The notes under the pieces: model-generated
Told to the model about the DNA's origin: nothing
The model's input: the letters and a program-made list of their open reading frames with translations, nothing else
The model's database searches: none
Made by a program: the position numbers and the translations under genes
Assembly (NCBI GenBank): GCA_047947115.1
Contig: CP170459.1
Span: forward strand, 1,472,001 to 1,536,000
Direction: 5' to 3'
DNA: 64,000 bases
Source: Verrucomicrobiota bacterium
GTDB taxonomy: Bacteria; Verrucomicrobiota; Verrucomicrobiia; Limisphaerales; AAA164-E04
Shown here: piece after piece, positions 33,860-45,042 of the stretch
How the letters are laid out: every line of letters starts with the position of its first letter
Numbering within the stretch: the first letter of the stretch is position 1

Positions 33860-35731
33860 ATGATGAGCTTAAATCGACAGTTTGTTGGGATCTTGTTACT
33901 TGCCTTGATAGGAGCTGAAGGCATGCATGCCGCCTCATTGGTTTCCAAAGACCTTATCAAAAACAAACAACATACCCATTTCCGCGTCTCACCAGACGGT
34001 TCCAAAATTGCTTTGTTGGCACCCCATGAAGGAGCCATGAATATTTGGCATCAGGGAGTTGGGCGTGGTAAACGCACACTCATCACGCGTGAATCCCGAT
34101 CTTTGACCCACTTTTTATGGCAATATGATAATGAACATCTCCTTTATCTCCAGGATCAGGATGGCGATCAGCAGCACCATCTTTATCAGGTGGATATAAA
34201 CGGATTCAATACGCGCGACCTGACGCCCTATAGAGGTATTCAGGCACTTGTGGTATCCATGTTGCCTTTGGTGCCGGACCAGATCCTTGTTTCCATGAAC
34301 CTCAACAGCCGGCAGCGGCACGATGTTTTTCGGATCAACTTGGACACCGGCGCGATTGAATCGGACACGATCAATCCAGGATATGTGATTCAATGGGCAG
34401 CTGATGCCGATTTGCAGACAAGGGCAGGAGTGACACTGTCCCCGGGAGGAGATTACGAGATTCTCATCAAGAACCTCGCCAATGGTGAGTGGACTCCCAA
34501 GGTGACGATTCCTGCGGGTCGTGCCATTCCGGGTTTGATCGGATTTTCTCCGGATGGTTCTGTTCTGTGGTATTTGGGAGATGACGAAACCGGGAGCATC
34601 AGGCAATGGGCGTTAAATCTTCAAACAGGCGAAACGGCATCCACTCCTGAAGGAAAAGTGGGTGATGTTGTCGACGTGTTTCGAGATCCTGTCTTGGGGG
34701 TGCCGGAGGGTGTGGCGCTCCGTAATCCCATGAAATCCTGGCGTATGTTTCATGGTGGATATGAAAGTATCATCGAGTTTCTGCGTTTTGAAAAAGGAGA
34801 TCTGTTCTTTCCGAGTCGAAGCCTTCAGAAAAAGGAATGGATCGTAGGATACACCGATCCTCAGATGTCGACTACCTATCAGGTCTATGTTCTGGGAGAT
34901 CGACACAAGGTCATCCTGATGGGAATGGAGCGGCCTAATCTACGCAACGGCAATTTTTCCGCCACCCAACCGGTGTTGATTCCCGGACCTGATGGACAAA
35001 AAATCCGAGCCACATTGAATCGTCCGATCCTGAAAAAGGAAGAACCTGTGCCGACGGTGATTCGGGTCGTGGATGGTGCCATGGATCAACCAACCTTCCA
35101 ATTCGATGAAGAAGCTCAGTGGTTGGCTTACAAAGAAATGGCAGTATTGACGATTTACCCGCCACGCGGTGTGGCTTCGAAAGAGGCAGTGACTGCGCTT
35201 GCTGATGATCATTGGGCCACAGGTTTGAAAGACGACATTCTGGTTGCCAGAAATTGGGCGATTGCAGAAGGACATGCCAAAGATGATCAGATTTATCTCA
35301 AAGGGACTGGTTTGGGTGCTTATGCCGCTCTCTCTGCCGGGGTGAAGCAACCTGATGCTTTCGCGGGTTTGGTTTTGGTGAATGGTGTAACAGATGTTCC
35401 CTCATTTATGAAAGAGTTGCCGACCTATGAACAATCTATCGCGTCCAAGCTGGCCGGATGGTTCACCGGTGACACATCCGGGCAGAAAGCGTGGGTGGAA
35501 CCATCACCGTTGGACCATCTAAATGACCTGGATTCACCTGTTTTGCTAGTGCACGGAGCCAATAATCCTTGGATTCGCAAGGATCAGGCGGGGCGTTTAA
35601 GATCCAAGCTTCTCAACCTTCAGAAGCCGGTGGAAACCCTCTTGATCGAAGGCGAAGGTCACCAGATCATTCAGGAGAACAACGTGATTCGCTACTACGA
35701 GGCCCTGGAAAAATTTCTAAGTGCCAGGTAG
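33860..35731 (+). CDS. S9 (prolyl oligopeptidase/acylaminoacyl peptidase) family homolog, probably catalytically inactive
   Basis: Signal peptide, beta-propeller (SPDGSKIA, RDLTP), C-terminal SPL...PVLLVHGAN.P...EGH; GTGLG at the nucleophile elbow. Confidence 0.8.
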   Translation: MMSLNRQFVGILLLALIGAEGMHAASLVSKDLIKNKQHTHFRVSPDGSKIALLAPHEGAMNIWHQGVGRGKRTLITRESRSLTHFLWQYDNEHLLYLQDQDGDQQHHLYQVDINGFNTRDLTPYRGIQALVVSMLPLVPDQILVSMNLNSRQRHDVFRINLDTGAIESDTINPGYVIQWAADADLQTRAGVTLSPGGDYEILIKNLANGEWTPKVTIPAGRAIPGLIGFSPDGSVLWYLGDDETGSIRQWALNLQTGETASTPEGKVGDVVDVFRDPVLGVPEGVALRNPMKSWRMFHGGYESIIEFLRFEKGDLFFPSRSLQKKEWIVGYTDPQMSTTYQVYVLGDRHKVILMGMERPNLRNGNFSATQPVLIPGPDGQKIRATLNRPILKKEEPVPTVIRVVDGAMDQPTFQFDEEAQWLAYKEMAVLTIYPPRGVASKEAVTALADDHWATGLKDDILVARNWAIAEGHAKDDQIYLKGTGLGAYAALSAGVKQPDAFAGLVLVNGVTDVPSFMKELPTYEQSIASKLAGWFTGDTSGQKAWVEPSPLDHLNDLDSPVLLVHGANNPWIRKDQAGRLRSKLLNLQKPVETLLIEGEGHQIIQENNVIRYYEALEKFLSAR

Positions 35732-36030
35732 AACGGATCGTCCCCGATCCGCACCTTGTGGAATCCTTGCTCAAAAATGGTATCCAACGGAAACTCTGAT
35801 GTAGTTGAACGCCACAATCTCCATGCGCATTCGGGAGGAATACAGGCTATTGAAAACGGAGGGCTTCCCAAAACGGCCGATGATTGGAATTCGAACGCCA
35901 CTAGGGACGCGCCGGGGACGGCACGATCTACCTGAGGTGGCCTGCAGGTAGTGCTGACCGTCCCGGTCCGCTCCTTGTGGTAATCTTATTCAAAACTCCC
36001 ATCCAAAGGAAACCCTTGGAGTAGTCAAAC
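35728..36030. repeat. REPIN (35728-35931), 16-bp linker and a truncated REPIN from 35948, flanking the RAYT 3' end
   Basis: GTAGAACGGATCGTCCCCGATCCGCACCTTGTGG...GGGACGGCACGATCTAC; GTAGTGCTGACCGTCCCGGTCCGCTCCTTGTGG; right boundary approximate. Confidence 0.85.
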
Positions 36031-36066
36031 ATCCACCACCTCTTCAGTGTGGCGTATCACATATGG

Positions 36067-36582
36067 CTATAGCTCATTTTTTGCGCACAGTCCGGCACGA
36101 ACTGGATTATTGAGTGTATAAGAGCACTTTTCAACATACTCATTGAGATTCCTGATTCGATGGTCAAAAAAATCCCGCTGCCACTGAATGCCAAAGGCTC
36201 GCGCTGTGTATGATTTCCAGTTTGTGACTGGCTTTCTCAAACCGATATCCACGGGCACAGAAAGCATGGCGTGCAGATGATCCGGCATTAACAGCATGAG
36301 GCGGCAGGTCCATTTGCCGATTTGATGGTAGTAGAAAGCTGATTTCAACAGGGACCACGCTACTAAAGGGTGGCATAGCTGATTGGTGCCCTTAGGTGTG
36401 GTGCAAATGGTGACAAAAAAGCATGGAGAACCGGAAACCCACTGAGGGATATAATGGGCGAGACGGCCTTTGCGTAATTGAGGATTTTTAAATTGGCATT
36501 TCAAAGGCTTTGGCCCTTCGAACTCAATGAAAGCAATTTGTTTTGTGAAGCCAGTAAAACACCTTAATTGAAAGATAGCCAT
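36067..36582 (-). mobile_element. REP-associated tyrosine transposase (RAYT, HUH/Y1 family); start uncertain
   Basis: FFVTICT, HUH motif MPDHLH, WQRDFFDHRIR, catalytic Tyr in YTLNNPVRAGL; flanked on both sides by GTAG REPs. Confidence 0.9.
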
Positions 36583-36592
36583 ACTTTTTTGG

Positions 36593-36816
36593 GTAGATTC
36601 CCGACGAGTCGGTATCTGGGTACGCACCTTGTGGCGTTCTTATTCAAAATTGCCATCCAATGGAACCTCCTGAGGTAATCGAACGCCAAAACCCATCTGT
36701 TTGCGTTTGCATAGAATACAGATCATCGAGAACCACAGGCTTCCCAAAACGGAAGATGATTGGAATTCAAGCGCCACAAGGGGCGCGCCGGGGATACCGC
36801 AGTCGTGGGATTCTGC
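36593..36816. repeat. REPIN upstream of the RAYT, both ends carrying short palindromic substitutions
   Basis: Internal CAGGCTTCCCAAAACGGAAGATGATTGGAATTC and GCCACAAGGGGCGCGCCGGGGA match the family. Confidence 0.85.
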
Positions 36817-36838
36817 CTGATGTGGGCGTTCGTCATTA

Positions 36839-38392
36839 TTAAGGTTTGATCGGGTATCGCTTTACTTTCACATCATTGAGTTGTTCAGGCCCAGGATTGC
36901 TTCGGCCTTTTGTGATCAAGTGTTCCAGCAATTGGCTTAGTTCCGTAACCTTGTCCGGTTGGGTGGCGGCAAGATTGTTCGATTCGGCAATGTCTTTCGA
37001 GAGATCGTATAGCTGTATCGTTGTTTCTGCTTCGCCCTTTGTCCAGCCGCCGGAACCCTTGTCCAGAACCAGTTTCCAATTGCCTCGACGAATGCTGGGA
37101 ATGCCGCGGATGGAGCAACTCACCGAGTGTTCCCGAATAGGTTTGTTCTCACCTTTCAATAGGGGTATCAGGCTGAAACTGTCTTCCCCTTCATTTTCTG
37201 CCAACGGCGTTTCGAGCACATCCGACAGGGTGGCGATCCAATCGGCTTGATGGATCAATTGATGATTTGTGGATCCGGGCGCCACAACCTTGGGCCAACG
37301 CACGATGAAGGGAACACGGTGTCCGCCTTCCCATGCGTCGGATTTGTATCCACGCAGTGGTCCGCTCGGGAAGTGGCCTTTGGCTTCCAATTGGTCAACA
37401 TCGATATAGGGCGCACAGCCATTGTCACTGGTAAACAGGACAAGTGTTTGCTCGGTCTGGCCGCTTTCTTCGAGCGCGTTGAGGATGTTCCCCACAACTG
37501 CGTCGGTTTCCATCACCATGTCGGCATAAAGATTGAGTCCGCTTTGGCCCTTCCATTCATCATTGACGGACAGCGGGGTGTGGGGAGAAGTGAGTGGGAT
37601 TTAGAGCAAGAAAGGTTCTGGAGTGTTCCCTTCGCTTTTGATGAATGCCGAGGCTCGTTCGGCGAGTGCCGGCAGGATGGGTTCCAGCGTCCAGTCTTTG
37701 AGCGCCGGGCCTTGTTTGCTGGCCTGGTTACGCGCCAGTTGTGGGGCTCCAAGAAACTCCGATGGGATGCCCACGGTGCGATCCTGATCGATAAAACAAT
37801 AGGGTGGCCAGTTGGGAACATCCGTTCCAAAATAGAGATCGAATCCTCGTGTGATTGGACCGCCTTCAATGGGTTGAGAGAAGATGGATGACCAAAGCTT
37901 GCGGTGATCCTCGGTTGCCTGCGCGTCGTTGGGGTGGTTGGCACGCATGGCTGGCAAAGCATCGTTTGGAATGGGCCAGTCCCATCCTAAGTGCCACTTC
38001 CCGATGCACGCTGTGTTGTATCCGCTCTTTTTGGCAAGTCCGGCAATAGTCAAGCGATTCGGCGCGATCAGTGTTTTGCCCCAGAGTCCTACAATTCCAG
38101 ATTGCAAGCTGGTGCGCCAGTGGTAGCGTCCGGTCAATAAAGTGTAGCGCGAAGGTGAGCAAACCCCGGAGGAGGAATGCGCATCGGTGAACCGCATCCC
38201 TTCACGCGCCAGGCGGTCAATGTTGGGGGTCGGAATGAGGCCTCGATCCGGGTTGTAACATTGTACATCGCCGTAGCCCAGGTCGTCGGCATAGATGATC
38301 AAAATGTTGGGTGTGTCAGCCGAGGCCGGGGATAGGCCTGCCCAAAGCGAGCTCATCAGGATGGAACAAAAGGATGCGAAGCAGTGTTTCAT
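36839..38392 (-). pseudogene. Arylsulfatase (Cys-type formylglycine sulfatase) interrupted by one in-frame TAA at 37601-37603
   Basis: PNILIIYADDLGYGD, CSPSRYTLLTGR, GKWHLG; reads through as PFLL*IPLTSPHTP into the same-frame half with FTSDNG, GYKSDAWEGGHRVP. Confidence 0.88.
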
Positions 38393-38471
38393 AAAACAAA
38401 TCAAATGTTCGGGACTCAGATGCAATTTATAGACTCATCTTGCCATGACAAGTCGTGACAGATGAATTATT

Positions 38472-38854
38472 GGAGGGTCGGGTTCCACCCCGAACCCAAA
38501 CTTCCTCCTCGAAACCCTCCTGAGCAAGAGACGTGGAACGCGGGAAGCTGTTGGCAATTGTATGCCTGTGGCGTTTCCATTGCAGCCTGGTGGCGGGTTC
38601 GAGCGTTGCGAGGTCTGAAATGGGAGTCCCGACTCGTCGGGAGAGTTTGCCCCTCCATTTTGTAAATACGGAGGGTCGGGTTCCACCCCGAACCCAAACT
38701 TCTTCCTCGAAACCTTCCTGAGCAAGAGACGTGCAACGCGGGAAGCCGTTGGCAATTGCATGCCTTTGGCGTTTCCATTGCAGCTTGGTGGCGGGTTCGA
38801 GTGTCGCGAGGTCTGAAGTGGGAGTCCCGACTCGTCGGGAGAGTTTGCTCTTCC
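38472..38854. repeat. Tandem pair of 185-bp GGAG-ended REPIN-like elements (second family)
   Basis: Units 38472-38656 and 38670-38854 (198-bp period), each starting GGAGGGTCGGGTTCCACCCCGAACC and ending CTCC/TTCC. Confidence 0.85.
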
Positions 38855-38870
38855 TGGAATTTTTTGGGTC

Positions 38871-39719
38871 TCAGGAACTCGCGCTGTTGTAGTGCCGCAT
38901 GGCGAAGCGCCACATGGCTTCCGATGCCATCAGGCACACCATCATCATGACAATGAGTGAAACAATTTCCATGGGGCTTTCCATTTTTTGAATAAAAAAC
39001 TTCGTCGGGATATTGGCGACCAACAGCATGGGGACGGCGAAGGTGAAGAATGCTTTGAATCCCCCCTTGAAGGCCGAGTCCGGCAATCGTGCCACGTTGA
39101 AAAGGTTGTAGTATCCCCAGGCAAATCCTTCCGCCTTGATGGTCCAGAAGCTGATGCTGGCCAAGATGAACATCAGTGAGTAGTGGATCATGATCCCGCA
39201 AACACACATTAAAAGGAACCCGGCACATTGGATCAGTGTGGGTTGGAGATTCAATTGCACGCCTGCGTAAACCATCACCGAAATGGCTGCGAGCGTGCTG
39301 ACGTAAGAGCCCAGATCCATGGTTCGAAGAGAGATGAGGAACCGGGAATTGACAGGCAGCAACAGCATGAAATCGAGGCGACCGGTCCTAATGTGTTCGG
39401 AAAGTTGAGTGATGTTGTTCAGGAAAACGGCGTGAAAAAGCTGTTCGATGAAATTGGCAGCGCCAATCAGGAAGATCACTTCATAACGACTCCAGGTGCC
39501 GATGTGATCGGTGTGAGAGTAGATGACCGAAATAAAAGTGATCTGCAGACCGAACCAGAGCATTTCCACCACCAGCCAGAGGAGAAAGTTGGCCTTGAAC
39601 TGCATGTCGCGCATGACGGAGTTGCGACACAACGCTCCGTAAATATTCACATAACGGCGCCACCCCTTTTTCAATGGAGGGATGGAATCTGATTGGCTGA
39701 CCGGGATGGTTTTGTTCAT
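38871..39719 (-). CDS. ABC-2 family permease (DUF990-like)
   Basis: Six TM pattern; IRTGRLDFMLLLPV. Confidence 0.85.
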   Translation of the reverse strand: MNKTIPVSQSDSIPPLKKGWRRYVNIYGALCRNSVMRDMQFKANFLLWLVVEMLWFGLQITFISVIYSHTDHIGTWSRYEVIFLIGAANFIEQLFHAVFLNNITQLSEHIRTGRLDFMLLLPVNSRFLISLRTMDLGSYVSTLAAISVMVYAGVQLNLQPTLIQCAGFLLMCVCGIMIHYSLMFILASISFWTIKAEGFAWGYYNLFNVARLPDSAFKGGFKAFFTFAVPMLLVANIPTKFFIQKMESPMEIVSLIVMMMVCLMASEAMWRFAMRHYNSASS

Positions 39720-39723
39720 GTGT

Positions 39724-40557
39724 TCATCCTCCTACCGCCGTATAAGATTTGATTCCGCGGCTCCACACAAACCGTGCCGCGAAGAATGCGATGACCAGCC
39801 ATATGAATTGCACGATCAAGCCGTTCCACATGTCGCTTCCCTCGACGCGTCCCAAGTAGATCAACACCGGATAAGACAGAAGATAAGGGAACGGGGTCCA
39901 ATAAAGCAGAGTCTCCAACCAGCCGGGTAACAGGTCAATGGGGAAGAGATGCCCTCCCGCCACATATTCGAAGGCGTACAAGATAAAGATGAACGTCGCC
40001 ACTTCCAGCAGCCAAAACGCCAACAAGGCCATCGTGTAGGAAAGCATGAATTGAAGCAAACCCGTGAGCACCAGGGAAACCAGCGACAGGATCAAAGCTT
40101 CCTTGCTTGCCGGTGAGGCCCAATACTGCTGCTGCCACAGCAAGAACAATCCAACCGGAATGGATGCTACCGCCAGATACATGGCGCGATTGGCAAAGAA
40201 CAGGCTGAGGCGAAAGGTGAGGTAGTCGATGGGTTTCAGTAGGAACTGGCTGATGGTGCCATTTCTAATATCGGCAACGATCTGCCAATCGTCTTCATTC
40301 ACCGCTGTGAGTGAGTTCACGACAAGGATCAGCAGGTAGTAGGAAATCATGTGGGACAACTCATACGTTCCGATGGTCTCTCCTTCGCCTTTCCCTGAGA
40401 AAATGGTTTTCCACAGGAGCACCTGGGCAAGAAGGGGAATCAAGGAAAAGACGGATCGGAAAAGGAAGTTCATCCTGTAGGCAAGCGTGTTCTGGATGCC
40501 GATATTGATGACATGTGCGTATTTGCTGAAGGATGAGAGTCTTGCCGACATATCCAT
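39724..40557 (-). CDS. ABC-2 family permease (DUF990-like)
   Basis: LAYRMNF, DIRNGTISQFLLKP, GHLFPIDLLP, YTAVGG. Confidence 0.85.
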   Translation of the reverse strand: MDMSARLSSFSKYAHVINIGIQNTLAYRMNFLFRSVFSLIPLLAQVLLWKTIFSGKGEGETIGTYELSHMISYYLLILVVNSLTAVNEDDWQIVADIRNGTISQFLLKPIDYLTFRLSLFFANRAMYLAVASIPVGLFLLWQQQYWASPASKEALILSLVSLVLTGLLQFMLSYTMALLAFWLLEVATFIFILYAFEYVAGGHLFPIDLLPGWLETLLYWTPFPYLLSYPVLIYLGRVEGSDMWNGLIVQFIWLVIAFFAARFVWSRGIKSYTAVGG

Positions 40558-40564
40558 AAAGGTT

Positions 40565-41368
40565 TCAATCCTTGCTTGGACTCACGTAACGTGGAGGATA
40601 AACCGTTTGATGCAATACGGTCGCGAGCTTTTGCGTGAAGCGGTCTATGCCGGTTTTTTCACGAGATCCAAGATCATATCGAATCGCTTTACCGAGATAG
40701 TCCGACCGAAAAGCGGCATCGAACCTTTCGTCATTCCGGACAAAAGCATCCAGATGTTGCATGCCGTTTTGCTTGGCGGCATACAAACCTTTCAGCATGT
40801 CGGGGTGAGCGCTGGATTCACGGATTGCCCAGACCGCATATACAAATGGCAACTGAAAGCATTCTTGCCAGGCTTGTCCCAGGTCCCAGATCTGATGTGG
40901 GGCATGATTCATGCGAAATGAAATGGCGGGATCTCCGATCAGCAACACCGCTTCTTTTTCCACCGCTGTTTCGTAGTCGGTGAGTGGTTGCCATCGAGGA
41001 GTGATACCTTTTTCCAATAACAAGATTTTTAACAGATTGATGCTGGTCAACGAAGCCGGATCACAGTGGACAGTATGCACATTTTCCAGTGGGCATTTGG
41101 TAGCCAGGAAGACGCTTTGGACGGGACCGTCACTCGCTACCGCCACGTCGTCAAGAATGAGATATCCCGGATGCAACAGTGCTTCTGTGATACTGACCAA
41201 AGCGGCATCCAAAGTTTCGTTTTCCAGCATTCCGGCCAGTTGTGATGGCGGCGCAAAAACCACATGATCCTCGATGCCGGCGGTCAGGGGAACGGCATTG
41301 AGGTAGGGAACCGATCCCACACGAAAGCGTGAAAGCGGATGCGTGTCAGTCCTGGAGGGTGCACTCAT
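40565..41368 (-). CDS. mqnA: Chorismate dehydratase (futalosine menaquinone pathway)
   Basis: VPYLNAVPL, GPVQSV, SLTS, LLIGDPA, DLGQAW...LPFVYAVW. Confidence 0.9.
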   Translation of the reverse strand: MSAPSRTDTHPLSRFRVGSVPYLNAVPLTAGIEDHVVFAPPSQLAGMLENETLDAALVSITEALLHPGYLILDDVAVASDGPVQSVFLATKCPLENVHTVHCDPASLTSINLLKILLLEKGITPRWQPLTDYETAVEKEAVLLIGDPAISFRMNHAPHQIWDLGQAWQECFQLPFVYAVWAIRESSAHPDMLKGLYAAKQNGMQHLDAFVRNDERFDAAFRSDYLGKAIRYDLGSREKTGIDRFTQKLATVLHQTVYPPRYVSPSKD

Positions 41369-41377
41369 TACGCGGAT

Positions 41378-42511
41378 TCAAGGCTTTTTGACTGGACGAT
41401 TTTCAACCGCGTTTTTTGTGGGGACCGGTTGATAAAAGGTGTTTCGTTGTATGGGTTCACGTCCGGCTTCAACAATAGCCTTGCGCATGGCATCTTCGGT
41501 CTGACCCTGGGGCGAACCGGCTCCTGCCATGTGGAAGATATGCTCTTCAACAATGGTTCCATGCAAATCATCAGCGCCGTAACTCAATGCCACCTGAGCC
41601 ATCTTGAGTCCCATGCCCACCCAGTAGGCGGTGACGTGATCGAAATTGTCCAGGAACAAACGTGCCACCGCAATCGTACGCAGCATGTCGTTGCCTGTGG
41701 GTGGACGATCCACGGGGATTTCATTGTTCTCGGGTTGGTAGGGAAGGGGGACAAAACCGCAAAAACCCCCGGTTTCATCCTGAAGTTCCCTCAGTTGTCT
41801 CATGTGGCTGATGCGATCTTCCAGGGATTCCACATGGCCATAGAGCATGGTGCAGGTGCTTTTACCGCCCAGTTTGTGCCAGCGACGGTGGACATTCAGA
41901 TATTCAGCGGCGGATTCCTTGCCGGTGGCGATTTGTTTTCTCACCTCCGGTTGAAAGATTTCGGCGCCACCGCCTGTCAATGAATCAAGACCACAATCCC
42001 TGAGGGCTCGAAGGGTATCGTCCACCGACTGTTTGGACAGCCAGGCCAAATGCAGGATCTCGACAGCGGTGAAGCATTTCAGCTGTAGCGATGCGCTGAC
42101 ATCTTTCAAGCCGCGCAGCATGTCCGTGTAATAAGAAAATGGCAAACTGGGATGTAATCCACCCACGATGTGCAGTTCGGTGATCCCCAGCGCCAATGCT
42201 TCACGCGCCTTGGTTTGCATCTCCTCGAGGCTGAGTTCGAATCCGTCCTGATCACGCTTTTTTCGGGAGAATGAGCAGAACTGGCAGCTCAGGATGCAGT
42301 AGTTCGAATAGTTGATATATCGATTGACGATGTAGGAGGCGCGGTTCCCGTTTTTTTGTGCATTGACGGCGTTCGCCATGGTGCCCAGCACATTCAGGTC
42401 TGGGCATGTGTACAAACGGAGTGCGTCCTCGTCATTCAAGCGTTGACCGTTCCGAATCTTCTCGTTCAGATCGGCCAGTCCGCTTTTTTCTATCATCCAA
42501 TTCTCACGCAT
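41378..42511 (-). CDS. mqnE: Aminofutalosine synthase, radical SAM (MqnE; MqnC/CofH family)
   Basis: NYSNYCILSCQFC, ELHIVGGLHP, GGGAEIF, TMLYGHVE, YGADDLHGTIVEEHI.HMAG; adjacent to mqnA. Confidence 0.85.
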   Translation of the reverse strand: MRENWMIEKSGLADLNEKIRNGQRLNDEDALRLYTCPDLNVLGTMANAVNAQKNGNRASYIVNRYINYSNYCILSCQFCSFSRKKRDQDGFELSLEEMQTKAREALALGITELHIVGGLHPSLPFSYYTDMLRGLKDVSASLQLKCFTAVEILHLAWLSKQSVDDTLRALRDCGLDSLTGGGAEIFQPEVRKQIATGKESAAEYLNVHRRWHKLGGKSTCTMLYGHVESLEDRISHMRQLRELQDETGGFCGFVPLPYQPENNEIPVDRPPTGNDMLRTIAVARLFLDNFDHVTAYWVGMGLKMAQVALSYGADDLHGTIVEEHIFHMAGAGSPQGQTEDAMRKAIVEAGREPIQRNTFYQPVPTKNAVENRPVKKP

Positions 42512-42671
42512 GTTTCGGTGCGGGGTGGCGTGGTGTTTTGGTAACCCGCTCTACCCCGCCTGAAACGTGTCTAAAAATGCGTCTGATTTCAAGGGCGGAA
42601 CGCCTTAAATGGGTATTTTGCGGTTTGACCGTCCCCGAAAAGGTGAACTTTCCACGCGGAGCAGCCCGCAG

Positions 42672-42888
42672 GTAGAGCTGATCGTCCCGATCCGCTCCTT
42701 GTGGTATCCTTATCCTAAACTGCGAACCAAAGGAAAACCCCAACGTATCCAAAGGACTAAAAATCCAATGCACACGTCCGAGCAGAGTTTCGGTTATTGA
42801 AAAATTGCAGGCTTCCCGAAACGGAAGTTGATCGGATATTGGACCCCACAGGGACGCGCCAGGGATCCACGCAGTCGCGGGATTCTAC
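42672..42888. repeat. REPIN-like element, GTAG family, with a palindromic substitution in the right end
   Basis: GTAGAGCTGATCGTCCCGATCCGCTCCTTGTGG...GCAGGCTTCCCGAAACGGAAGTTGAT...GATTCTAC. Confidence 0.85.
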
Positions 42889-42972
42889 CAATTTTAAGGC
42901 TTTGGCGATTTGTTACGACTTTATCAATGTTGCGAATGGTATGGCTTATGCTCCCTGATGTCGGCTGTTAAA

Positions 42973-43248
42973 ATGAAAGGAAAAGGCATCAGGGTGATGA
43001 AACTCAATACAATTCCGCCTCAGGACTATCTGGAACCCCCGGGGCATGTTAAGACGCAAACGGATATGCAGCTTTGGGCGCGCATCATGATGGAGAGTGA
43101 GTGCCCTTGCATCCATCTGCCGAGATGCGATCCACATACATTTCATCGGATCGCTGATGAACAGGATGTCAGTCCATATCTTGTATACATGTCCGACAAG
43201 GACGAAGCGGACAGCTTGCGATCGTATTGGTTGATCAGGGAATCCTAA
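42973..43248 (+). CDS. Small hypothetical protein
   Basis: Open frame filling the gap before the next + gene; no motif recognised; start uncertain. Confidence 0.45.
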   Translation: MKGKGIRVMKLNTIPPQDYLEPPGHVKTQTDMQLWARIMMESECPCIHLPRCDPHTFHRIADEQDVSPYLVYMSDKDEADSLRSYWLIRES

Positions 43249-43304
43249 TCCTGTCAGTGTGCTTTTCGCGTGACCTGCAGGAGTCGACGTTACATTCTTG
43301 TTTC

Positions 43305-44804
43305 ATGAGATTCCTGTTGCTGTTTTTTTTAGGCGCATGGTCATGCTTTGCGGAAAAGGTTCGATGGGTGATCAGTGAAGCCGAATCAGATCAGCCTGCA
43401 CCTTGTCGCATCCATCTGACGGATTCAGAGGATCAACCGGTTCGTGCTCCTGGACTTCCATTTTGGCGTAATCATTTTGATACGCCTGGAGATTTTACAC
43501 TCGATCTCAAACCGGGGTCCTATCGTTTTGAAATTTTCCGTGGTCCCGAATACCTGATGCTTGAAGGTGGCTTTGAAGTCAAAGCGGGGCATGAAATGTT
43601 GATGTTGCGCCATTCGCTCAAGCGCATCGCTCATATGTCGGAGGAAGGTTGGTGGTCCGGGGAATTGCATATTCATCGGCCGGTGAATGAGGTGCCTCTG
43701 TTGATGCGGGCGGAGGATTTGCATGTGGGTCCGGTGATCACCTGGTGGAATCAAAACAATCCATGGAAGGATCTAGCCTTGCCTGAATCTCTTTGGCGTG
43801 AAGTGGCACCTGATCGATTCATCGGCCTCATGGGGGGCGAGGATGAGCGTCGGGGTGGGGCGTTGTTGTATTTTAATCTCAATGAACCATTGGACATTCA
43901 GTCCGCTCAGCCTGAGCATCCGTCCCCCATGATGTTCCTGAATCAAGCCGAGGCGCTTGGGGCCTGGATTGATATTGAAAAGCCGTTCTGGCGGGATGTC
44001 CCTGCATGGATTGCTTCAGGAAAAGCGGATTCCATTGGTCTGGCAAATAATCACATGTGGGAGCGAGGCATGCTCGACAACGAAGCCTGGGGCAGACCTC
44101 GGCCAATGGAAGATTATCCATCACCACAGGGGAACGGACGATGGACGCAGTTTTTGTATTATCACATTCTCAACGCGGGAATCCAACTGGCTCCATCCGC
44201 CGGAAGCGCGTCGGGAGTGTTGAATAATCCGGTGGGCTACAACCGTGTGTATGTGCATTTGGAAAATGGTTTGAATCTGGACGATTGGTGGGAGGGATTG
44301 CGAGAGGGCAGATCGTTTGTGACCAATGGCCCTTTGCTGCGGTGTCGGGTGGGGGAGTCGCTTCCGGGTGCTCGTCTTGTGGTGTCCGGTTCAGATACTT
44401 CCCATCATTTGATGGCACGCTTGACGAGTAGGGATCCGGTCGAAGCGTTTGAAATCATCCACAACGGTGAAGTCATTCGAAGGATTGCGGTGCGGGATTT
44501 GAAAGGAACGATCGAGCAGGATTTGGGGCAAGCTCCCACCGATCGGCCGGGTTGGTTTTTGGTTCGAGCCGTGACATCCCTTCCTCACACGTTTCGTTTT
44601 GCTTCGACCGCGCCCTTTTATGTGGTCGATGACAATGGTGCCATCCCTGTTCGCGAGGACGCTTGTCAATTTTTCCTTACCTGGGCGCGAGAACGTATGA
44701 ATACCCTTTCATTGGAGGATGATCCGTTGCGCGGGGAAGTTTTGGAATACTGGAAGGAGACTGAGGTGTTCTGGATGGATCGTTTGGCCGGCATTGGAAA
44801 ATAG
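43305..44804 (+). CDS. Secreted CehA/McbA-like (PHP-fold) metallohydrolase
   Basis: Signal peptide, RGPEY, WWSGELHIHR, SAGSASG, GYNRVYV, GRSFVTNGPLL. Confidence 0.75.
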   Translation: MRFLLLFFLGAWSCFAEKVRWVISEAESDQPAPCRIHLTDSEDQPVRAPGLPFWRNHFDTPGDFTLDLKPGSYRFEIFRGPEYLMLEGGFEVKAGHEMLMLRHSLKRIAHMSEEGWWSGELHIHRPVNEVPLLMRAEDLHVGPVITWWNQNNPWKDLALPESLWREVAPDRFIGLMGGEDERRGGALLYFNLNEPLDIQSAQPEHPSPMMFLNQAEALGAWIDIEKPFWRDVPAWIASGKADSIGLANNHMWERGMLDNEAWGRPRPMEDYPSPQGNGRWTQFLYYHILNAGIQLAPSAGSASGVLNNPVGYNRVYVHLENGLNLDDWWEGLREGRSFVTNGPLLRCRVGESLPGARLVVSGSDTSHHLMARLTSRDPVEAFEIIHNGEVIRRIAVRDLKGTIEQDLGQAPTDRPGWFLVRAVTSLPHTFRFASTAPFYVVDDNGAIPVREDACQFFLTWARERMNTLSLEDDPLRGEVLEYWKETEVFWMDRLAGIGK

Positions 44805-44904
44805 GTTGCCCAAGTGGTGTTTCGGGGTAATTTCTTCGACCATGGAGTTTGTGAGGATTAAGCCAACGTATTCAGTCCATTTGAATCCACGTCTTGGGGA
44901 CGCA

Positions 44905-44973
44905 GTTGATTGGAATGGAATTGGGGTGCGATCCAGGCGCGCTCGCGGGCCTGCGTCAGCAGGTCTCTTCTAC
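44905..44973. repeat. Degenerate right half of a GTAG-family REPIN
   Basis: GTTGATTGGAAT...GGCGCGC...CTAC, with CCTGCGTCAGCAGG at 44950-44963. Confidence 0.5.
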
Positions 44974-45042
44974 CTGTTGCGTTGGTTGCAATGGCCTAAA
45001 CCCTTGTCCGTTTATGGAAGCGTAGGATAATCATATCAGCCA

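Follow-up and report, generated by a model that had tools for sequence, protein, structure and literature searches.

Short TCCCG…CGGGA palindromes replace 7 nt in REP ends of a Verrucomicrobiota genome and adjoin small tRNA-linked GIY-YIG nuclease genes

The window analysed here is a stretch of 64,000 nucleotides (nt) of contig CP170459.1 (positions 1,472,001 to 1,536,000) from a Verrucomicrobiota bacterium, within a 6.08-Mb single-contig genome (G000, contig C1) seen in seawater and estuary sequencing runs. The repeat families of this genome comprise GTAG-tagged doublets of repetitive extragenic palindromic (REP) sequences of about 208 nt and a separate GGAG-tagged family. The host elements display the hallmarks of REPs and REPINs: a GTAG tag, a stem-loop, inverted doublets and a flanking gene resembling a REP-associated tyrosine transposase (RAYT). 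In ends of both families, short palindromes of the type TCCCG…CGGGA take the place of 7 nt. Comparison with a congener (G001), which served as source of orthologues, and with further genomes revealed replacement with precise ends, different insert variants at the same site, polymorphism between orthologues and tight linkage to nuclease genes. The elements of the window are listed below (strand is given where one was assigned).

36592..36817: GTAG REP doublet, REPIN-like, both ends overwritten, immediately upstream of the RAYT-like gene
36599..36614: 16-nt palindrome, one mismatch from perfect, which begins 3 nt past GTAG in a REP end and overwrites its 7-nt 5' arm
36795..36810: 16-nt degenerate palindrome, which overwrites the 7-nt arm in the right-hand REP end of the 36592..36817 element
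35727..35932: GTAG REP doublet, both ends empty (internal control)
38627..38642: perfect 16-nt palindrome, which overwrites 7 nt in the right end of GGAG element 38472-38656, 10 nt from the GGAG tag
38825..38840: insert identical to that at 38627, in the tandem GGAG copy 38670-38854
42678..42684, plus strand: empty 7-nt arm of a left REP end, where the G001 orthologue carries the perfect 16-mer instead
42866..42882: 17-nt bulged palindrome, which overwrites the 7-nt arm in the right REP end of element 42671-42889; the G001 orthologue is empty

All six palindromic strings on which the original prediction was built were found where it had placed them; its limits 36794-36811 and 42865-42883 take in one flanking base per side. 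Block replacement in REP ends held for five of the six motifs and failed for 44950-44963, and the replaced arm, given as 7-8 nt, measures 7 nt in the REPs of the window. Replacement by the perfect 16-mer was confirmed in both GGAG right ends (38627-38642 and 38825-38840), where the two inserts are probably one event followed by duplication. At 36599 the best-matching G001 element is empty; at 36795 G001 has a longer composite form, and two public runs show a variant of 15 nt. Public contigs from four other studies contain inserts at both sites, one contig carrying the perfect 16-mer at 36599, and a public contig spans the 42866 insert without differences. Their presence in independent contigs shows that the inserts are not an assembly artefact. 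One contig of run X9 is empty at 42866 beside extra sequence; it may represent a second tandem element and was not counted.

For the whole genome, 96 GTAG-family ends were delimited by tag, 3' arm and tail, the insert not being used in the definition. A 7-nt arm was present in 73 of these ends, a 16-17-nt palindrome in 12 and a 29-nt composite in 4, while no end had 9-15 nt; the remaining seven consist of four ends with a 6- or 8-nt arm and three double-tag matches. A TCCCG…CGGGA-type palindrome is held at a fixed offset by 16 of the 96 ends. In the composite form, a 6-nt leader and a 17-mer together replace one base and the right junction is unchanged. GGAG right ends (n=24) showed a 7-nt segment in 19 cases, 6 nt in one and a filled state in four, both window copies among them. 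Inserts are present in at least six REP arm subtypes.

The window region is syntenic in G001 and contains three filled/empty pairs, in both directions: at 36599 and 42866 G000 carries the insert and G001 does not, while the left end at 42678 is filled in G001 alone. The 36599 pair is less clean, because G001 has no RAYT gene at the site orthologous to the 36592-36817 element; the G001 element scores 225 against that element and 149 against the upstream one. Eighteen further G001 sites, picked as filled, proved to be empty in G000 in six cases, shared in two and uninformative in ten. Empty alleles retrieved by flank search mostly hold 7 nt (range 5-11), and the comparison of empty with filled alleles revealed no target-site duplication but a loss of 5-11 nt instead. 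The bimodal arm lengths and the filled/empty orthologues bear out the expected fixed offset and block, not gradual, replacement, and they support the proposal of a separate class of minimal mobile palindromes that overwrite unrelated REP families. DNA folding predicts that filling abolishes the native REP stem. Tandem units with filled ends (38627/38825 and others) nevertheless show that a filled REP can still be amplified locally. A swap of hairpin tips, with the left flank pairing with the right flank, was considered as well and fails as a general rule.

The motifs are also far too frequent for chance. G000 contains 37 copies of TCCCG-N6-CGGGA and 28 with an N7 spacer, compared with 2-17 for each of the other spacer lengths from 0 to 14. 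Three strict patterns gave 29, 20 and 18 matches in the genome compared with 1, 3 and 0 in block-shuffled and 0, 0 and 0 in reversed sequence, in line with the enrichment that had been anticipated. Only 12 of the 70 strict sites lie inside long open reading frames (ORFs), though long ORFs make up 83% of the genome. Automatic assignment placed 42 of the 70 in a REP, a repeat or a tRNA; the 28 left over are, as judged by eye, mostly degenerate ends of REPs or repeats. The densest cluster, with 21 of the 70 strict sites, is C1:1340000-1356000 (L050); by eye, this region holds polysaccharide-biosynthesis genes interspersed with many small pairs resembling toxin-antitoxin or nucleotidyltransferase modules.

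The sixth string of the original prediction lies in a different kind of element.

44938..44974, minus strand: ordinary GTAG REP of a second family, in which 44950-44963 is the native stem

Here CCTGC-GTCA-GCAGG is part of the REP itself, and the orthologous G001 site shows the plain family consensus. The window copy departs from this consensus by point changes and a 3-nt indel only, which rules out an insert. CCTGC-N4-GCAGG has 52 matches in the genome, mostly the stem of this second GTAG family, and 33 of them represent two complementary forms.

REPs are not the only targets. The same palindromes equally overwrite tRNA relics and other repeats, so that the idea of a REP-specific targeting had to be dropped. 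In two tRNA-Met copies of G000, 8 nt in the anticodon arm and variable loop have given way to a palindrome, as have 11 nt in a tRNA-Thr relic; in G001, a tandem array comprises one intact and two filled tRNA-Met copies. No palindrome was detected in the 12 other tRNA fragments of G000. Candidate palindromes occur in terminator-like hairpins and further repeats. The last helix of the RNase P RNA (C1:4926672, L044) is a perfect family 16-mer, with a 17-mer variant in G001 and unrelated helices in other genera; it is possibly an old tolerated insertion. A variable helix in both 23S rRNA genes (C1:2577272 and 5992850, L047) is one mismatch off the family 16-mer, whereas four relatives have longer, unrelated helices and G001 gave no match. 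Palindromes with other arms are seen at the same targets, for example TTCCG…CGGAA forms and, beside GIY-YIG genes, CCCCG…CGGGG forms; as they share target sites, the family is wider than the TCCCG…CGGGA motif.

A nuclease gene co-occurring with the palindromes had been suggested as worth a search, and small GIY-YIG genes were indeed found to adjoin them. G000 contains four PF01541 matches, three of them in small ORFs, and two of these genes are directly linked to a palindrome.

C1:3758861-3759112, minus strand: mini GIY-YIG gene, stop 1 nt before the palindrome in the tRNA-Thr relic
C1:3011019-3011306, minus strand: mini GIY-YIG gene, stop 0 nt before the palindrome in a tRNA-Met relic

The encoded proteins are single-domain GIY-YIG proteins of 83 and 95 amino acids (aa) with PF01541 scores over the cut-off. 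Upstream of the two genes lie an intact tRNA-Thr and a tRNA-Met 3' half, respectively. A third small GIY-YIG gene (C1:1875512-1875793, L028) has no tRNA link and a different hairpin type alongside. The nearest solved structures are UPF0213/Slx1-like proteins (PDB 1zg2 and 1ywl; E 8e-15 and 2e-12). A single-sequence AlphaFold model of the nuclease was poor (pLDDT 58.8) and was not used.

The arrangement recurs in other genomes. Among 22 homologous GTDB loci, most of them in Planctomycetota and a few in Acidobacteriota and Verrucomicrobiota according to record titles, a palindrome lies within 110 nt downstream in 15 and on either side in 18, compared with 0.2% of random windows; it typically sits in a tRNA-Asn relic. 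Seventeen order-level loci, retrieved with the Met-type protein, showed by eye 12 perfect, three imperfect and one different palindrome downstream, and none in one case. A search with the DNA pattern alone matched 14 of 300 genomes of the phylum. In nine of these 14 the palindrome is found in a tRNA-Asn relic, and seven of the nine relics adjoin a mini GIY-YIG ORF, one of which was only weakly matched. In several genomes (L121, L127, L140, L096) the unit of tRNA 3' half, nuclease gene and tRNA relic with palindrome is repeated in tandem, which suggests a circular or rolling intermediate. A related GIY-YIG domain was also observed within ORFs of more than 1100 aa flanked by other short palindromes (L085 and L084 in G025 and G027). 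A metagenome scan with the Met-type protein returned seven distant matches and one fragment. Carriage by phages was considered and rejected: the 10 and 11 loci that exact scans found in viral contigs lacked any tRNA or mini GIY-YIG ORF and were taken as chance matches.

Several known systems share single features with this arrangement. Integrative elements at tRNA genes carry cargo between an intact tRNA and a displaced partial copy, as seen here, and for homing endonucleases an insert that disrupts the site would guard against renewed cutting, much as the inserts here might. However, the cassettes contain no integrase or intron, and most filled sites share no long donor homology. The absence of a target-site duplication sets the inserts apart from miniature inverted-repeat transposable elements and classical insertion sequences (IS). 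No constant 5' tetranucleotide marks the foot of their stems, where the flanks follow the host element; without a tag of their own they are not REPs. Like REPs and REPINs with RAYTs (PMC3733652, PMC6006769, PMC3686654) they are short intergenic palindromes whose many copies would be maintained by a single-copy enzyme acting in trans, but they are single 14-17-nt units that overwrite REPs and are linked to GIY-YIG instead of HUH genes. REPs are also hot spots for certain IS elements (PMC1525189); those encode a transposase, whereas the passenger here is 16 nt long, non-coding and removes 7 nt. Prokaryotic Slx1-like/UPF0213 proteins (PMC1564403) are also minimal stand-alone GIY-YIG domains, but are described as probable repair enzymes, with no link to tRNA cassettes or palindromes given in the available part of that paper.

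The closest published system is that of the Ssn nucleases with their NTS/SRM repeats (SsnA, cd10448; Chenal et al. 2025, PMC11893778), in which a single-domain GIY-YIG protein of about 90 aa is encoded beside short hairpin repeats dispersed genome-wide. The palindrome stem resembles the TCCCG…CGGGA core of dRS3/NTS (PMC11893778), a gene flanked by its cognate hairpin, a characteristic of Ssn/SRM loci, was found at 18 of the 22 homologous loci, and Tyr, Tyr and Glu at positions equivalent to those mutated in SsnA are conserved, judged by position and not by an alignment with SsnA. The published SRM pattern, in contrast, overlaps none of the 70 strict sites and has 21 matches in the genome compared with 34 in a shuffle. 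Partial-length identity between the proteins described here and NTS-adjacent GIY-YIG proteins is 26-39%. In a clade tree that stands proxy for cd10448 and has few columns and rough supports, six viral-contig proteins adjacent to NTS cluster on a long branch of their own (97/93), to which the two linked G000 proteins do not belong. The third small GIY-YIG protein of G000 (1875512-1875793) forms a long branch nearest to NTS-adjacent proteins. Further differences are the tRNA linkage (the word 'tRNA' occurs 0 times in the main text of PMC11893778) and the replacement of target bases, absent from the available portion of that account. Its authors propose an IS-like origin, and mobility of the Ssn repeats is put forward there as a hypothesis only (PMC11893778). 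A preprint (10.64898/2026.09.22.753630) includes SsnA repeats only as a benchmark, as far as its accessible text goes. Searches of the open-access literature turned up no account of palindromes that replace REP bases or of tRNA-linked mini GIY-YIG cassettes.

Taken together, we favour, with a probability of roughly 57%, the view that the 14-17-nt TCCCG…CGGGA palindromes, which replace about 7 nt (5-11), are non-autonomous micro-elements mobilised by GIY-YIG nucleases of 83-95 aa, whose genes are flanked by an intact tRNA on one side and a tRNA relic carrying the palindrome on the other. On the best reading, REPs are bystander targets of the palindromes, and the palindromes are not RAYT products. 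By analogy with SsnA (PMC11893778), the nuclease would bind the hairpin in single-stranded DNA and cut beside the donor hairpin. It would in addition cut structured target DNA, and host repair would then join the hairpin in place of the removed bases and leave no target duplication. GTAG REPs may be hot spots because their start, GGTAGAN followed by a stem, mimics the tRNA D-loop junction GGTAGAG, which is the junction overwritten in the tRNA-Asn and tRNA-Thr relics beside nuclease genes.

A number of observations weigh against this interpretation. A match to GGTAGAG at 5 or more of 7 positions was seen at 10 of 60 distinct junctions, compared with about 2% at random; this rules out a universal GGTAGAG junction, and the other sites need another rule. 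Replaced segments lie on 5' arms, 3' arms or loops, so no single target rule emerges. The activity of the nuclease is predicted, and no joining activity is known for a lone GIY-YIG nuclease domain. Among draft genomes of 88-95% completeness, G194 (17 palindrome copies) and G170 (8 copies) have no homologue by a two-sequence profile, G161 (8 copies) has only a short weak match inside a long ORF, and G001, with 16 TCCCG-N6-CGGGA sites (control 4), has a broken gene as its sole detected homologue and no relic. Conversely, G034 has the gene, yet no strict TCCCGAY match. Negatives of the PF01541 genome search carry little weight, since it overlooked the mini gene known from G062. Gene and palindrome co-occur in 4/5 versus 14/195 and 15/17 versus 78/183 genomes (Fisher p ~2e-4 and ~5e-4), counts that were tallied by eye, include gene-adjacent copies and ignore kinship.

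Other origins of the inserts have to be weighed against mobilisation by the GIY-YIG nucleases. The tandem filled units (38627/38825; C1:5279504/5279638; 5321268/5321446), composite inserts that are almost all one 17-mer with a related 6-nt leader, and short flanks common to REP ends would suit a small number of primary insertions that spread by gene conversion or duplication of filled REP units, most filled ends then not being independent. We nevertheless consider this unlikely as the main explanation, since at least eight different inserts occupy the same REP position, identical inserts occur across unrelated GTAG, GGAG and tRNA-relic hosts, and the arm of empty orthologues fits the local subtype; it also leaves the first insertion unexplained. 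Gene conversion among REPs probably adds copies. A local origin of the hairpins, whether through point mutations accumulating gradually or through template switching that turns quasi-palindromes into perfect ones, is very improbable and already largely refuted by the orthologue pairs and arm lengths: loop inversions do occur, with both orientations at the same tRNA-Met site, but inserts and replaced bases have no sequence in common, intermediate lengths are absent, and identical 16-mers appear in unrelated contexts and distant genomes. A nuclease that nicks the target, with a host reverse transcriptase copying the palindrome from RNA as in the target-primed mode of Penelope-like elements, is improbable, too. 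Placed directly after a tRNA gene, the cassette would likely be co-transcribed, the genome has one reverse transcriptase gene, and candidate copies sit at helix tips of the RNase P RNA; however, target duplications are absent, SsnA is reported to be inactive on RNA (PMC11893778), and inspection of a few hundred bases on either side of the cassettes revealed no reverse transcriptase, a systematic search not having been made.

The original prediction had also considered the inserts as by-products of HUH cleavage and strand transfer at REP ends, for which the window itself offers a candidate enzyme.

36067..36627, minus strand: RAYT-like HUH gene, with ATG at 36582 as the likelier start; candidate mobiliser of the host REPs

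This ORF scores 62.5 bits against NF047646, under the cut-off of 80, and a Pfam search gave no match. The element beside it is filled at both ends, the genome has at least six other Y1-type loci, and the left junction falls at the base of the GTAG REP stem. We still regard a RAYT origin as rather improbable. The enzyme co-located with the palindromes is the mini GIY-YIG protein, and the same inserts are found in tRNA relics behind GIY-YIG genes in several phyla. No strict-motif palindrome lies within 1 kb of any of six other Y1/RAYT-like loci; the window gene does have two degenerate ones alongside. Moreover, the palindromes have no constant GTAG or GGAG tag of their own, and the offset from tag to insert varies by host family. 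The gene at 36067..36627 is not the likely mobiliser of the palindromes. Together with an extra REP doublet (window 35727-36627) it is missing from the orthologous G001 region, which indicates a recent gain or loss at this site.

Nearby, a minus-strand sulfatase-like gene is broken at 37513-37604 into ORFs 37601-38425 and 36839-37519. Position 37601 is T in the window and G in public contigs from all four runs compared, so the break may be an assembly error. A repeat of about 40 copies resembling a CRISPR repeat heads the 16-mer list of the genome.

The system offers filled and empty orthologous alleles that are exact to the base, a natural tRNA-gene target and candidate enzymes of 83-95 aa. 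For the host repeats it is a source of both diversification and damage, with 16 of 96 ends of one REP family overwritten. How short palindromes without a transposase multiply is an open question for CGTC REPs (PMC3733652). If the enzyme pastes hairpins, GIY-YIG chemistry would be extended to transposition and very small tools for single-stranded DNA might follow. We suggest only tentatively, and with the odds somewhat against it, that a 16-nt hairpin with which a tRNA-cassette GIY-YIG enzyme of about 90 residues overwrites some 7 bases of other hairpins constitutes a new class of mobile DNA. If true, this would be the smallest known pair of mobile element and transposase; it would also be a hyperparasite of REP/RAYT systems and provide a model for the spread of transposase-less palindromic repeats.

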